DNA of 64,000 nt from Octopus vulgaris. Lineage: Eukaryota. This document shows positions 15,416-61,750 of the stretch, piece after piece. The notes below the pieces were generated by a model. The model searched no databases, was not told the DNA's origin, and was given only the letters and a program-made list of their open reading frames with translations. Position 1 is the first letter of the stretch; each line of letters begins with the position of its first letter. Both the position numbers and the translations under genes were made by a program. Location: positions 26,598,001 to 26,662,000 of the forward strand of contig OX597818.1 in the NCBI GenBank assembly GCA_951406725.2, read 5' to 3'.

Positions 15416-15608
15416 ATTTATTTTCCAGTTCTATATTTAAGAGATGAGGAATTCTGTACATTATTTACGTTACTTATAGTTGACGGATATTTGTCCTCAT
15501 CTTGTTTGTTGTTAACACAACGTTTCGGCTGATATACCCTCCAGCCTTCATCAGGTGTCTTGGAGAAATTTTGAACCTGGGTTCTCATTCCTAAGGTATT
15601 TTTCAATG

Positions 15609-15647
<39 letters not shown>

Positions 15648-16107
15648 TCACTGCCTGAAATCAAACTTGGAATCTTGGGATTAGTATCTCGCACTCTTAA
15701 CCACTACGCCATATGCTCGTGGGTAATTATGGAGTGAATTTTAGGGCTTATAATTCTAATATTCTCTTATCCTTCCTTAATACTGGTCCCGATATGCTGT
15801 TCATATCTGCACTCGGTTTGCTTAGGAGGTTGTTGTGTCCTAGCATATGTACTGCTTCTTTTAGTTTTCATATTTTCCAGTGGTGTTCTCTGTCTATTAT
15901 CTTAACTTCATCCCACTGGAGGAGGTGGTCTTCATTTTTCCATACATGATCAGCTATACCCAATTTATCAATATCTCCCCATGTCACAGCTCTGCGATGT
16001 TCCTCTACCCTTTCGCCTTTGTATAACCTTTGTGTAACCTACCACAGCTGCATGGGATGAAGTACACGCAATTCTTAGTTATATTCTCTTCTATTGGTGA
16101 TTTTACC
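15416..16107 (-). mobile_element. Penelope-like element 3' end: GIY-YIG endonuclease remnant, tRNA-like module and hammerhead-containing pLTR
   Basis: The minus strand of 15748-16107 reads NCVYFIPCSCGR..YKGE..RVEEHRRAV...GIADHVW...WDEVKIID...KLKEA with frameshifts and stops. A hammerhead motif follows downstream. Confidence 0.85.
15514..15559 (-). ncRNA. Minimal type I hammerhead ribozyme (Penelope-type)
   Basis: GACAC-CUGAUGA-A-GGCUG[GAGGGUAUAU]CAGCC-GAAA-CG-UU^-GUGUU. Stem I GACAC/GUGUU, 5-bp stem II, palindromic ACGU stem III. Confidence 0.85.
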
Positions 16108-18639: not shown

Positions 18640-19406
18640 TGTGCTGTTTACAGCTGTGCTTGGAAGGTGTGTAGCATGTGATTGTTGCACTAACCACGTC
18701 AGAGAAAGTTGAGCAGATCATCTGCATCAAATTTTGCCAATAAATTGGTGATACCTGCTCAGAATCCTGTGCAATGTTTTTAAAATGTTTTCATTTTTCT
18801 CAACATGATCAAGAAGATCTTGTACAACTGAAACCTGAGTGTCTATTTGATCAACTGAAAGCAGTTTTGGTACAAACTTGGCAGGCACGTGTCTCCTACC
18901 CAAATCTTCAGTGATAATAGATGGAACTGAACCATCACTAATCTGCACAACCTCTGATAACTCACAGATGGTGATTTGACAATTTCTTCTGACTGCTGCA
19001 TGCACATCTGTGATGTTTTTCTCAGTTCTGCTGGTTGCGGGTCTCCCAGAACATTTGTCAATATCAACATTTTTTCAACCATCTTGGAAACGTCTGAACC
19101 ACTTGTACACTTGTGTGCGGTTTATATACTCCTCTCCATGCACTTTCTGCAACGTTGCATAGCCCTCTGAGCAGGTATTGCCATGACAACTTACTCTGTC
19201 ATGGTCGATGCGATGAACACACGCCACACACCTTTTTTCCAAGCACTGCTGTAAACAACAAACAACAGAAGTGAGCTAGAACGTTAAAACTTAGTGTGCA
19301 TGCATAGCACAGTTCAAGGTCAATCTGTGGCCTTGTGGTTTTATTCTGTGTGCTTTAGCTTCATTACTATGGCAACAGTCCGGATAATTATTGACCAGAC
19401 TTTGTA
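18640..19406 (-). mobile_element. Mariner-derived non-autonomous element made of two inverted 5' ends
   Basis: Minus-strand transposase remnant VRRNCQITICELSEVVQISDGSV..IITEDLGRRHVPAKFVPKLLS. Plus-strand N-terminus EKVEQIICIKFC. TIR-like end ...TTGACCAGACTTTG|TA. Confidence 0.8.
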
Positions 19407-22800: not shown

Positions 22801-24099
22801 AATTTTTTTAAAAAAGTAATTAGAAAACATTATTCAAACATTAGGCAGTGGAAACTTACAAAAGAAAAGTAAAAAAAGCTTGCCAATTTATCTTGACACA
22901 AAAAAAAAGACAGGAAAATCATTTCTATATTGCTGATTAATCAAGATTAATAAAAGTTAATATGAATTATTAACTTGTTATGGATAGAATAAAGATTGAC
23001 AAGTCAGTGATGGAGCCTTGACCTACTAGCAGTAACAGCTAAATTCCACTCAAATTACACCTTACCATTTTAAAGAAAAAGTCATATTAGATGATGTGAT
23101 TCTTAGTTATTTTCACATAGAAAAAAGACAGGTTGGTTATAGTTGAATGCCTTTCATCATAGATTTGTTGGATTACGATGATCTGAGATTAGACATCAAC
23201 AATCAACCACAACTGATACAAATGGTTTTCTCAGTTTTTGCCAGTAGAGTAGTTTAGATGTAAAAATTATTAAAGAGAGTGATAGGGAGAATATTTGTTA
23301 GTAAGACTGTATTTTACACAAAAAATAGTTGTATAATACATCTGCTTAAATGTATTTTTAATGCATAATGCAAAAGTAAGATTTTGAAGCTGTACTTGTT
23401 TGGCAAGTGACTTGATCTGAGATCATGTGTTGAGACTGAAACTATTACATTATAGAAAAGTTGTGGTAGACATTTAAAACACGCACGTGTTGTTGTATTC
23501 ACTTGTATATCATTTCGTGATTGCATTGTATACTATAATGGTTTGTCTTGCAACTTTGAACTAGTCATTGACCCAATTCCTCTGTATCATCATGATTAAT
23601 ATGTTTTGAATATACAGACATGAAAGGAAATCTAAACTAGAAAAATCATGTGCCTAGAAAACCACTGCAAGTGTGGTTAATATTAATGCTACTGCTGCTT
23701 CTGCTACCACTACTACTACTGTTAATTTTACTTCTACTGTAACTGTTGCTGGTAATAGAATGAGGAAGCTTCTACACCAGTGGTTTCCGACCTTTTCACA
23801 CTGGTACCAACAGTGGTTCCCAACCCTTTTATTTAAATGTGTTTTCTTATGGACCCCTTAATATGCTTATCCTTATGTATATGTATGTATGTATATCATC
23901 ATCATCATCGTTTAACGTCCATTTTCCGTGCTAGCATGGGTTGGATGGTTCGACCGGGGTCTGGGAAGCCAGGAGGCTGCACCAGGCTCCAGTCTGATCT
24001 GGCACAGTGTTTCTACAGCTGGATGCCCTTCCTAACGCCAACCACTCCGTGAGTGTAGTGGGTGCTTTTTACATGCCACTGGCACATAAAAACCGGCAC

Positions 24100-24140
<41 letters not shown>

Positions 24141-24143
<3 letters not shown>

Positions 24144-27100
24144 GAGGTAATCAGAGTAAGTGACAGAATACTTAAGATTAGATTAGTGCTTCATCATAGT
24201 TTAGCAACCATTATATCAGCCTATGCTCCTCAGTCGGGGCTACCCGATGGACAGAAAGACCGATTCTATGACACTCTACTGCAGACTACCTCATTGACGA
24301 ACGACAGAGACCTTATCTTTGTGGCTGGTGACTTCAATGGTCACGTTGGACGACATGCTGGGGGCTTCCATGGCGTACATGGAGGCTACGGCTATGGCTC
24401 CCGCAACGAGGAGGGAACCAGGCTGCTGGAGTTCTGCGATGCAAATAATCTTATGATTTGCAACACTAACTTCAGGAAACCTACCAGCCACCTAGTCACT
24501 TACCAATCGGGCCAACATACCAGCCAAATTGACTACATCCTTACAAGGCAAAGGGAGAGATGGCTGCTTATAAATGCCAAAACCTTCCCAGGTGAAGAAT
24601 GTACCCCACAACATAGACTGGTAGTTAGTGACTTTAGGATCAGGACTAGGAGGACAACCAGAAGACGACAAATATGGAGAAGAAGGATCTGGAAGCTTAA
24701 AGATCCTGCAAATGGACAGAGATTTAGGGACATATTACTTGAAGCCTCTGACGAAGTAGAAGGGGATAGAGCATCACAGGGGGTAGAAGACAGCTGGACG
24801 TTTCTAAGGGACAACCTGCTGAGAGCCACTGACCAGATCTGTGGCTGGTGCAAAGTCCCCTCTCGACCTAGAATAACGTGGTGGTGGAACAATATTGTAG
24901 ACAGGGCTATTAGAGAAAAGAGACAGGCTTGGAAGGTCTGGAAAAATGGGGGTAGCAGGGAATTGTATCAGACTGCCAAAAGAGAAGCTAGGAGACAGGT
25001 TTATTTAGCCAGAGGGGAAGCAGATAAGAAAAAATTTGCCAATGTTCTGCGCCGTGAGGACCAAAGACTGGAGGTGTTTCGTGTTGCAAGACAGTGTGTG
25101 AGAGAGAATCGTGATGTGGTAGGAGAGAAGTGTGTTCGCATGGAAGATGGTTCACTTGCGCTAAATGAGGATGCAAAGAGAGAGGTTTGGAGATGCCACT
25201 ACGAAAGGTTGCTGAATGAAGAAAATGAATGGGATAAAGAGAGTCTGCCGAATGTTGACCCAACAGAGGGACCAGCTATCCGAGTTGATAGTTCTGTGGT
25301 AGCTAAGGCAATTAGAAGCATGAAGACAGGGAAAGCCCCAGGCCCATCAGGAATCACTGCAGAGATGCTCAAAATGTCTGGTAGTGTCGGCTATAGCCTA
25401 GTCACCCATATAGTTAATCAGGTGATACACAAAGGGGTCATACCCAATGACTGGTGTAGCAGTATAATAGTCAACTGCTACAAAGGTAAAGGTGATGCCC
25501 TAGATACAAACAACTACAGAGGTATCAAGCTGTTGGACCAGGTGATGAAGGTTACGGAGAGGGTCATAGCCCAACTAATTAGAGAGAGAGTTAGTTTAGA
25601 TGAGATGCAGTTTGGGTTTGTGCCAGGGAAAAGTACTACTGATGCTATATTCCTGGTAAGGCAGCTGCAGGAGAAATACCTAGCCAAAGATAAGCCCCTG
25701 TACCTGGCTTTTGTTGACATGGAGAAAGCCTTCGACAGGGTCCCCCGATCCCTTATCTGGTGGGCAATGAGAAAACTAGGGATAGATGAATGGTTAGTGA
25801 GAGCTGTGCGGGCCATGTATAGGGACGCCGCTAGTAGGGTGAGGGTTGGAAATGAGTACAGTGAAGAATTCCGGGTAGAGGTAGGGGTCCACCAAGGCTC
25901 AGTACTCAGCCCCCTCCTATTTATCATAGTCCTCCAGGCAATAACGGAGGAATTCAAGACAGGATGCCCTTGGGAGCTCCTCTATGCTGATGACCTTGCT
26001 CTAATTGCTGAGTCGCTATCAGAACTGGAGGAGAAGTTTCAGGTGTGGAAACAAGGATTAGAATCGAAGGGCCTCAGAGTCAATCTAGCTAAAACCAAAG
26101 TCGTAATCAGTAGGAAGGTAGACAAATCACAAACACCTTCAGGTAGATGGCCCTGCTCGATCTGTAGAAAAGGTGTAGGTAGAAACTCTATAAGATGCAC
26201 CAAGTGTAAGCTATGGACACATAAGAGATGCAGCAATGTCAAAGGAAGGCTAACTAGGAAGATGGTTTTTGTATGTGGCAGATGCTCAGGAACAATAAAC
26301 ACTGAAAATGCTCTGAGACCAACTTCTGTCACTTTCCAGGGAGAAAAACTAGAAATAGTTGATAGTTTCCGTTACCTAGGTGACCAAGTAAGCAGCGGGG
26401 GCGGGTGTGCTGAAAGTGTAACTGCTAGAGTAAGAATAGCTTGGGCAAAGTTCAGAGAGCTCTTACCTCTGCTGGTGACAAAAGGCCTCTCGCACAGAGT
26501 GAAAGGCAGACTGTATGATGCGTGTGTACGAACAGCCATGCTACATGGCAGTGAAACATGGGCCGTGACTGCTGAGGATATGCGTAAGCTCGCTAGAAAT
26601 GAAGCCAGTATGCTCCGATGGATGTGTAATGCCAGTACTCACACTCGGCAGAGTGTAAGTACCTTGAGAGAAAAGCTGGACCTAAGAAGCATCAGTTGTG
26701 GTGTGCAAGAGAGACGTTTGCGCTGGTATGGTCATGTGGCGAGAATGGATGAAGATAGTTGTGTGAAAAAGTGCCACACCCTAGCGGTTGAGGGAACCTG
26801 TGGAAGAGGCAGACCCAGGAAAACCTGGGACGAGGTGGTGAAGCACGACCTTCGAACTTTAGGTCTCACCGAGGAAATGACTAGAGACCGAGACCTCTGG
26901 AAGTGTGCTGTGCGCGAGAAGACCCGGCAGGACAAGTGAGTCCACAACCCGTGACCTTCTACATGGGATGGAGCCAGCCTACGTATGCATACCTTCCCTT
27001 CTTGGGACACAAAACTCTACTTGTGAAGACGTGTTGAGGCAAGTGAGGATCAGAATCGAAATCGATCAATGGAAATTGCGGATGTGCTACCAGTGCCGGT

Positions 27101-41301: not shown

Positions 41302-41693
41302 ATCCTGTTAGGTGGCTAGTCCAGCGGAACGAGACGTCATCAATGTTTTGACCAATCATCCTGTTAGGTGGCTAGTTCAGCAGAACGAGACGTTATCAAT
41401 GTTTTGACCAATCATCCTGTTAGGTGGCTAGTCCAGCAGAACGAGACGTCATCAATGTTTTGACCAATCATCCTGTTAGGTGGCTAGTCCAGCAGAATGA
41501 GATATCATCAATGTTTTGACCAATCATCCTGTTAGGTGGCTAGTCCAGCAGAACGAGACGTCATCAATGTTTTGACCAATCATCCTGTTAGGTGGCTAGT
41601 CCAGCGGAACGAGACATCATCAGTGTTTTGACCAATCATCCTGTTAGGTGGCTAGTCCAGCAGAACAAGACGTCATCAGTTTTTTGACGAATC
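41302..41693. repeat. 56-bp minisatellite, 7 copies
   Basis: Unit ATCCTGTTAGGTGGCTAGTCCAGCAGAACGAGACGTCATCAATGTTTTGACCAATC starts at 41302, 41358, 41414, 41470, 41526, 41582 and 41638. A diverged precursor lies at ~41201. Confidence 0.97.
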
Positions 41694-42037
41694 AGGATTA
41701 GATCTGCTCGTAGAGATCTCTTTATAAATTTTTCCTTCCCTAAGTCATATCTCTGTCAGTGTGAGTGACTGTTTAAGGATCTGAGAAATTGTAATTCGCC
41801 CCACTTCCATTATTATAATTCTCTCACTGTGGCCGTAGCAACAGTGACCACGGTGGTTGTAGTAGTAGTGCGAGTTGGGGCAGTCGTAGTGGTTGTGGTA
41901 GAATTTCGTTTCTCTTTTTCGGAGGACCAATGTTTTGTTTTAATATTCCTGGCCCAGGGTGTTCAAACTTGGTCTAAATTTTTTGATGAAATAAAGTTCT
42001 TTATTTTGGCGTTGCGTGAAGGTTACGCTGTCACTGA

Positions 42038-48011: not shown

Positions 48012-48392
48012 ATGAGTTTGAGTCTCATGGCTGGCTGCTAACAAATTTTTCTGCAATATAAGGATGTTCTATCCTATTTATGCCATTCAGCATTACTATT
48101 ATGTGTTTGAGAATAAAATATTTCCATATCTGTATATTTCAACATACATCGTAATTTCACAAATAGCATCTATAAAAGCTATATTTATAAGTTCAAAAAT
48201 TGCAAAGGAATTTGTTAGTAGGCAGTTTAGCTTAGAGGTAAAGCACTATGAATGGTAATCACAGGGATGTGAGTTTGAGTCTCATGACTGACTGCTAACA
48301 AATTTTTCTGCAACATAAGGATGTTCTATCCTATTTATGCCATTCAGCATTATTATTATGCGTTTGAGAGTAAAATATTTCCATACCTGTAT
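48012..48392. repeat. ~125-bp direct repeat (48012-48136 and ~48269-48392)
   Basis: TGAGTTTGAGTCTCATG.CTG.CTGCTAACAAATTTTTCTGCAA...TTTCCATA.CTGTATAT occurs twice. Confidence 0.9.
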
Positions 48393-61630: not shown

Positions 61631-61750
61631 GCTTACGGCCATATCAAGTTGAAAACACCGGTTCTTGTCCGATTACCGAAGTTAAGCAACATCGACCCTA
61701 GTTAGTACTTAGATGGGTGACCGCTTGGGAAACCTAGGTGCTGTAAGCAT
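61631..61750 (+). rRNA. 5S rRNA: Dispersed 5S rRNA gene or pseudogene copy
   Basis: GCTTACGGCCATATC...CCGATTACCGAAGTTAAGC...AGTACTTAGATGGGTGACCGCTTGGGAA...GCTGTAAGCAT, 120 nt, 5' and 3' ends pair, followed by a T6 Pol III terminator. It has a few non-canonical substitutions. Confidence 0.93.

Follow-up and report, generated by a model that had tools for sequence, protein, structure and literature searches.

A tRNA-derived head, probably once a Pol III promoter, in the terminal repeat of an octopus Penelope-type retrotransposon

Introduction

SINEs are normally parasites of LINEs, and, to our knowledge, the terminal repeats described as having Pol III promoters all belong to non-coding elements (Cassandra, Helenus, Ajax; Sm-alpha). 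What, then, should be made of a tRNA-like module found in octopus DNA between the stop codon of a Penelope-like element (PLE) and a hammerhead motif? Here, "the window" means the whole stretch of DNA that was analyzed, 64,000 nt in length, and bare coordinates are positions within it. The original prediction was that the autonomous element had captured a Pol III promoter and could produce a short self-cleaving RNA from its own terminal repeat.

The answer matters beyond this locus. A tRNA head fixed in an autonomous Penelope would show a route from Penelope elements to SINE-like hammerhead repeats, and thousands of Penelope ends in such genomes may carry a SINE annotation. If the head was also the promoter, this would be unusual for a protein-coding transposon, and the pile-up of copy 5' ends described below would be a fossil map of the transcript start in a class of elements about whose promoters and RNA templates little is known. 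Were the ORF also read by Pol III, the family would provide one of the rare Pol III transcripts that encode a protein, and cap-independent translation could be tested on it.

What does the window contain?

The stretch in question is the 3' pseudo-LTR (pLTR) of a defective retrotransposon copy whose family, of the Penelope/Poseidon type, is abundant. This copy is truncated at its 5' end and occupies ~16106 to 15426 of the minus strand; BLAST finds no second copy of the element within the 64,000-nt window. Its features are as follows.

15751..16106, minus strand: endonuclease domain at the 3' end of the only ORF (from translation and genome matches)
15719..15750, minus strand: stop codon TAA (15750-15748) and 29-nt spacer (27 of 30 loci)
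15644..15718, minus strand: tRNA-derived head (best match tRNA-Arg(TCG), z 8.2; copy 5' ends clustered at 15725-15710)
15711-15701, minus strand: A box
15668-15657, minus strand: B box (B-box-like stretch at 15666-15657), damaged in the window copy
15612..15643, minus strand: (AAT)n tract, highly variable in length among copies
15586..15588, minus strand: ATG, candidate start codon, in frame with the ORF when the repeat sits upstream
15514..15559, minus strand: minimal type I hammerhead, predicted cut 15519/15518, within the predicted coding frame
15426..15513, minus strand: remaining pseudo-LTR with an optional 30-40-nt tail; insertion 3' end at 15426

The order originally read from this strand (stop codon, about 30 nt, tRNA-like module, (AAT)n, hammerhead) is correct, with a spacer of 29 nt, and re-inspection likewise revealed no target-site duplication around the tRNA head. 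The module is present where it was placed, at 15716-15643, except that it starts at 15718. Please note that the window copy itself is inert. A frameshift near 16020-16030 and an in-frame stop codon at 15870 interrupt its ORF, and its B box departs from the family majority at three positions, the C of GTTC among them. ARAGORN and Rfam, run on the window region, detected neither the head, which is too degenerate for them, nor the hammerhead.

To which family does the copy belong?

The surveyed genome comprises 2.8 Gb in 227 contigs. Exact 17-22-nt pieces of the spacer, head, and tail occur 780, 3503, and 5641 times, respectively, and reversed controls 0 times; these counts, together with the alignment to tRNAs (z up to 8.2 against shuffles), argue that the head is not a chance sequence. 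A protein search with the endonuclease end scored 150 matches, with identities of 74-85%. In a set of twenty copies that extend from endonuclease to tail, with the window copy counted twice, identity to the set's own majority is 91-95% (92.6% for the window copy), which indicates that the family expansion is old.

In other copies a reverse transcriptase (RT), with a match to RVT_1, lies upstream of the endonuclease. The majority sequence of 32 long copies (45 found, 13 duplicates dropped) has one open frame of 787 codons, RT then endonuclease, without a Cys-rich linker. Homologues carry PF00078/PF26215/PF28514, and the closer ones (P0001-P0007), known as protein only, are 51-69% identical. The endonuclease part had no match in Pfam, its GIY-YIG profile included, or in PDB; we take it to be a GIY-YIG endonuclease from its motif and its position in the ORF.

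Pseudo-LTRs flank the ORF, as the order pLTR-ORF-pLTR in L264 and L243 demonstrates. Among 30 of the 145 matches to the repeat-ORF junction, 21 run on into the ORF, 8 break off roughly ten bases after its start, and 1 is an inversion. An inverted piece, that is, a 5'-truncated partner, accompanies 47 of 90 copies selected by their heads, and insertions have two alternative 3' ends about 35 nt apart (~15426 or 15457-15475). Both traits fit Penelope-like insertions as described in PMC8557442. Domain order and the absent Cys-rich linker between RT and endonuclease suggest that the family is of the Penelope/Poseidon type.

A second, young Penelope-like family is present at L301-L304 (G000:C8, C11, C17, C16), with intact ORFs of ~990-1080 codons, a Cys-rich linker, and ~18 near-identical matches; it has a hammerhead-like core starting with U. 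We presume from the linker that it is Neptune-like.

Is the head a fixed part of the element?

A one-off SINE insertion would leave other copies of this PLE without the tRNA module. No such copies appeared among the best 30 of the 150 scored endonuclease matches: the head directly follows the endonuclease stop in 30/30 loci, the window copy included, and the hammerhead is also present in 21/30. The one-off insertion is thereby ruled out. The autonomous PLE itself carries the head, as originally claimed, and the bridge from stop codon to head recurs in contigs from sequencing runs of three other organisms (C, D, and E). The head is fixed in the family between endonuclease stop and hammerhead.

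Which tRNA was the parent? The majority head has intact A and B boxes. Against 25 distinct genomic tRNA sequences, with z scores taken against shuffles, the best matches are Arg-TCG (8.2), Arg-TCT (7.6), Ala (6.5), and Thr (6.4), so we tentatively name tRNA-Arg. By alignment to the genome's tRNAs, the first base of the head, 15718, corresponds to tRNA +1. A tRNA-Thr(AGT) parent was considered and rejected, with an empty pattern search and z of 5.5-6.4 versus 8.2 and 7.6 for tRNA-Arg. A functional tRNA is ruled out: ARAGORN recognized none in 50 loci and Rfam none in 20 (E<=10), and the stems are unpaired in the alignments.

The second Penelope-like family has no such head, without A or B box in 4/4 copies. 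No A/B-box pattern was found downstream of ten long frames from distant relatives (25-42% identity), some of which have little downstream DNA; these ten were retained from 80 metagenome loci after 70 short, duplicate, or N-containing ones were dropped. A single capture probably brought in the head, in the form of a tRNA-Arg-like retrocopy ending in (AAT)n, and preceded the expansion of the family.

The last part of the spacer is a near-inverted copy of the first bases of the head, with which it can form a 9-bp hairpin at 15732-15709 (-9.3 kcal/mol in L125 and -6.7 in L182, absent from L168). This hairpin may be a relic of the fold-back junction by which the head was captured. As a separate observation, six spacer-head junction copies lie ~5.2 kb apart at G000:C4:129456886-129482990, probably as a tandem segmental array.

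Where do copies begin?

The head-selected sample consists of 90 of the first 100 head-motif matches listed, all on contig C1, out of the 3503 in the genome. Seventy of these copies begin at 15725-15710, with the mode (13 copies) at 15718, the tRNA +1 position. None begins at 15726-15731, and the other 20 extend further 5'. Among the 70 edge-starting copies, L187 in fact retains the spacer, shortened by a small deletion, and duplicated or paired loci make up about five pairs.

Loci selected by their tails (n=90, also contig C1, partly overlapping the head-selected set) gave a similar picture. Fifteen end in the hammerhead or middle, and 35 end in the (AAT)n tract or were lost there. Of the others, 8 stop within the head, 19 at 15710-15726, and 4 at 15727-15760; 9 reach the endonuclease. 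Hence, 19 of the 32 loci traced past 15709 end at 15710-15726. Per nucleotide, the rate of ending at the head edge is 0.053, versus 0.001-0.003 in the hammerhead, middle, and head body.

Longer copies can be read in the same way. The full-length pLTR-ORF-pLTR copy L264 starts at 15720; 0 of 21 ORF-linked upstream repeats extend 5' of the head in the same direction (only about four reach the head); and 5 of 30 junction loci show a fragment of the ORF start fused to a repeat whose first base lies at 15724-15712. The simplest reading of these 5' ends is a hard RNA 5' end at the head. Since copy 5' ends pile up at the head edge, as expected if transcripts began there, we consider it moderately likely that the tRNA head acted as the family's internal (type-2) Pol III promoter and marked the start of the transcript.

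Could the hairpin at the head edge account for the pile-up instead? The head might be a passenger, with transcription by Pol II and an RT that stops or folds back at this hairpin on a long RNA. The hairpin lies exactly at the 5' edge of the head and reaches -9.3 kcal/mol, several copies have perfect palindromic junctions centered on its loop, and 46 of the 70 short copies carry an inverted piece at the junction, often joined via 2-3-base microhomology. However, 22 of the 70 ends lie at 15717-15719, before the 5' arm of the hairpin is copied, and an enzyme that stalls should do so at the 3' foot. No inverted piece was detected in the remaining 24 copies, so the pile-up needs no fold-back. The passenger account also leaves unexplained the coincidence with tRNA +1 and the intact boxes. 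We regard it as quite unlikely as a full explanation; a structure-driven stop can nevertheless contribute, and this counts against the promoter reading.

Are the short copies a SINE in their own right?

For every endonuclease-linked copy in the head-selected sample there are about 3.5 short ones (70 versus 20), and the 300-nt unit is without a T4 run. One may ask whether the solo repeats are a self-propagating SINE, with Pol III transcripts of the 300-nt unit arising at scattered short copies and being copied by the Penelope enzyme; the small derivatives L415, L417, and L418 would also suit such a unit. We think this unlikely. Many short copies, like the long ones, stop just a few bases beyond the beginning of the ORF: of 71 spacer-less loci examined, 55 could not be scored, and 12 of the other 16 run at least 4 bases along the ORF-start extension. 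The templates therefore likely came from an upstream pLTR reading into the ORF rather than from a free-standing short unit. In addition, the protein of the anole element PAc, as described in PMC11167929, starts reverse transcription internally in vitro at two tail-defining sites and needs ORF sequence beyond its start site, which the solo copies are without.

It is also worth setting the unit beside what defines the known classes. Like a SINE, it has a tRNA-derived A/B-box head at its 5' end (with the B box damaged in the window copy). A SINE, however, is a non-coding unit apart from its autonomous partner, whereas this unit is the autonomous element's own repeat, with its 3' half in frame with the ORF. 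Non-LTR retrozymes are head-to-tail tandems with a hammerhead in each unit; the window copy is single, and tandems are rare among the loci fetched.

Some derivatives deserve separate mention. L415 is a three-unit tandem of a repeat piece plus 76 nt of the ORF start, and L417 and L418 have one common junction (repeat, 229 nt of the ORF start, repeat). Each is a candidate non-autonomous subfamily.

Is the full-length element compatible with Pol III transcription?

On its sense strand, the 2672-nt majority sequence is free of T4 runs. For its ORF, 2.67 runs are expected by synonymous codon shuffle (P 0.03) and 2.8 by a first-order Markov model (P 0.07). Control long frames from the metagenome loci that encode relatives all (10/10) contain 1-10 runs, and the second Penelope-like family has 5-6; it must be remembered that a family majority sequence is being compared here with single control copies. 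The control frame of an RTE element in the window is T4-low as well (2 versus 4.8 expected, P 0.08). As a sign that Pol III read the unit, the depletion is suggestive only. The control is an open frame of 949 codons at window 24090-26939 (plus strand), which reads, we presume, as an intact RTE-type LINE with an AP endonuclease followed by an RT.

A stronger proposal is that Pol III transcribed the whole 2.7-kb protein-coding unit from the captured head, with the ORF purged of T4 runs and the uncapped RNA translated through the ribozyme motif. We treat this as possible and lean against it.

Two points count against the promoter reading here. It leaves the translation of an uncapped Pol III RNA unexplained, and the Penelope element of D. 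virilis is described as using a LINE-like, TATA-less internal promoter (PMC2377424), which by analogy could apply to the octopus family. Transcripts might accordingly start at the head from an overlapping Pol II internal promoter, the tRNA origin being incidental; the D. virilis pLTR is the precedent, and if the RNA were capped, its translation from the ATG at 15588 would need no further assumption. Against this stand the start position, A box, and B box, all of which match the geometry of a tRNA gene, and the weak T4 depletion. We consider such a Pol II start very unlikely.

RNA data were available from three raw runs of organism B, of which about 6% each was covered. They yielded thousands of family reads on both strands, with no pile-up of starts or ends in these unstranded libraries, a result that speaks neither for nor against a Pol III RNA. 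Among the read joints listed, none is of the kind expected from a circular RNA. All three runs skip 45 nt with GT..AG borders at L038:1629-1675, on the strand that runs against the element; splicing of a host transcript or a genomic deletion may be the cause.

Does the hammerhead cut?

Helix I pairs 15559-15555 with 15518-15514 (5 bp), and is followed by the core CUGAUGA (15554-15548), an unpaired A (15547), and helix II (15546-15542 with 15531-15527); GAAA occupies 15526-15523, and the predicted cut lies at 15519/15518. G10.1-C11.1 is present, the unpaired A follows A9, and helix III is reduced to the loopless palindrome ACGU. The motif thus has the cores, unpaired base, G10.1-C11.1 pair, short helix I, and palindromic helix III of a minimal PLE hammerhead. 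Between 15562 and 15480 the window copy shows no difference from the family majority. The description of 15559-15514 as a complete hammerhead holds insofar as both cores are there and match the majority; the motif is, however, of the minimal dimer type and not a complete monomer. Dimer-type minimal hammerheads are described as having no activity as monomers (PMC4209133). Both cores are intact in 62 of 175 distinct segments, and extra conservation is not evident.

Do copies end where the hammerhead would cut? Most do not: 339 of 380 tail-bearing segments cross the predicted cut site or end beyond it, and 41 end at 15496-15518. By position, 30/380 end at 15503-15518 and 0 at 15519-15523, a weak hint of occasional cutting at a rate not clearly above that at 15545-15593. 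Together with the two insertion 3' ends and the dimer-type hammerhead, the 339 segments speak against the proposed short self-cleaving RNA ending at 15519/15518. The other half of the original prediction, capture of a Pol III promoter, fares better for the family, in which the head is universal among the endonuclease-selected loci and 5' ends lie at its edge, than for the window copy with its damaged B box and broken ORF.

The hammerhead also lies within a predicted coding region. For a repeat lying upstream of the ORF, the majority sequence keeps an open frame from the ATG at 15588 through the hammerhead and tail into the ORF, and L243 does so through hammerhead and tail. In anole PAc, too, the ORF is described as beginning at the hammerhead, with uncut RNA as the main template (PMC11167929). 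Within the tail, a 9-nt unit (window ~15480-15460, minus strand) differs in copy number among copies and keeps the predicted reading frame.

How might the copies have been made?

If the head did act as the promoter, transcripts would start at ~15724-15718 in the upstream pLTR and would run, mostly uncut, through the (AAT)n tract and hammerhead into the ORF. The element's RT would start inside this RNA near the beginning of the ORF and copy back to the RNA 5' end, and the cDNA would often fold back, giving the inverted junctions. The by-products would be thousands of ~300-bp copies that look like SINEs. Longer copies, the window copy included, would need a tandem or circular template in which ORF, head, hammerhead, and ORF start again follow one another; the lack of a T4 run across the whole unit would let Pol III make a template of this kind. 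Cutting by the hammerhead would require a dimer or the help of protein and would affect a minority of templates.

How does the family compare with known systems?

Endonuclease-positive Penelope/Poseidon elements such as PAc, as described in PMC11167929, PMC4209133, and PMC8557442, have in common with the octopus family a single RT-endonuclease ORF, pseudo-LTRs, a minimal dimer-type hammerhead overlapping the ORF start, an optional 30-40-nt tail, inverted 5'-truncated partners, and insertions that cross the hammerhead cut site. Unlike those elements as described, the octopus repeat opens with a tRNA-derived A/B-box head and (AAT)n, where most 5' ends lie.

The schistosome repeats Sm-alpha and Sj-alpha are, in the accounts of PMC6765202 and PMC2770079, high-copy repeats that also have a tRNA-related Pol III-type promoter followed by a hammerhead; they are non-coding, often tandem, and their hammerheads cut in vitro. 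The octopus unit, in contrast, is the terminal repeat, and in part the coding start, of an autonomous element, and its hammerhead is minimal. Cassandra, Helenus, and Ajax (TRIMp3) likewise hold a small-RNA-derived Pol III promoter in a terminal repeat, proposed to come from a SINE insertion. As PMC10886601 presents them, they are non-autonomous LTR elements of at most ~1.3 kb whose autonomous partners are argued to need Pol II, whereas the octopus head sits in an autonomous, non-LTR element.

Animal non-LTR retrozymes, as characterized in bioRxiv 10.64898/2026.07.22.740005, are short, non-coding, hammerhead-bearing derivatives of Penelope pseudo-LTRs, and one small octopus tandem (L415) resembles them; they are defined as tandems with a hammerhead per unit, whereas octopus copies are mostly single or in inverted pairs and run from the tRNA head.

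Are the known octopus SINEs related? Ohshima and Okada reportedly described the tRNA-derived SINEs OK, OR1, and OR2 from octopus in 1994, OR1 and OR2 being said to be of tRNA-Arg origin. The head may be of the same tRNA-Arg type. Identity with OR2 is unlikely: OR2 is given as a CORE SINE in PMC4758252, whereas (AAT)n directly follows the head of the octopus Penelope.

Full-text literature searches brought up no published description of a tRNA head in a Penelope repeat; a prior annotation in Repbase or Dfam is possible. The main text of an octopus repeat annotation (PMC13282606) does not mention hammerheads.

Other features of the window

Several further features of the window may be of use to others. 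On the plus strand, a tRNA-Thr(GGT)-like sequence in degenerate form (35.9 bits) lies at 48220-48295 and is probably a pseudogene or the head of a SINE; 61631-61749 gives a single 5S rRNA match (101 bits). Seven copies of a 56-bp unit, 94% alike, occupy 41302-41694. On the minus strand, ~18700-19250 resembles what we take to be a decayed mariner-type transposase.
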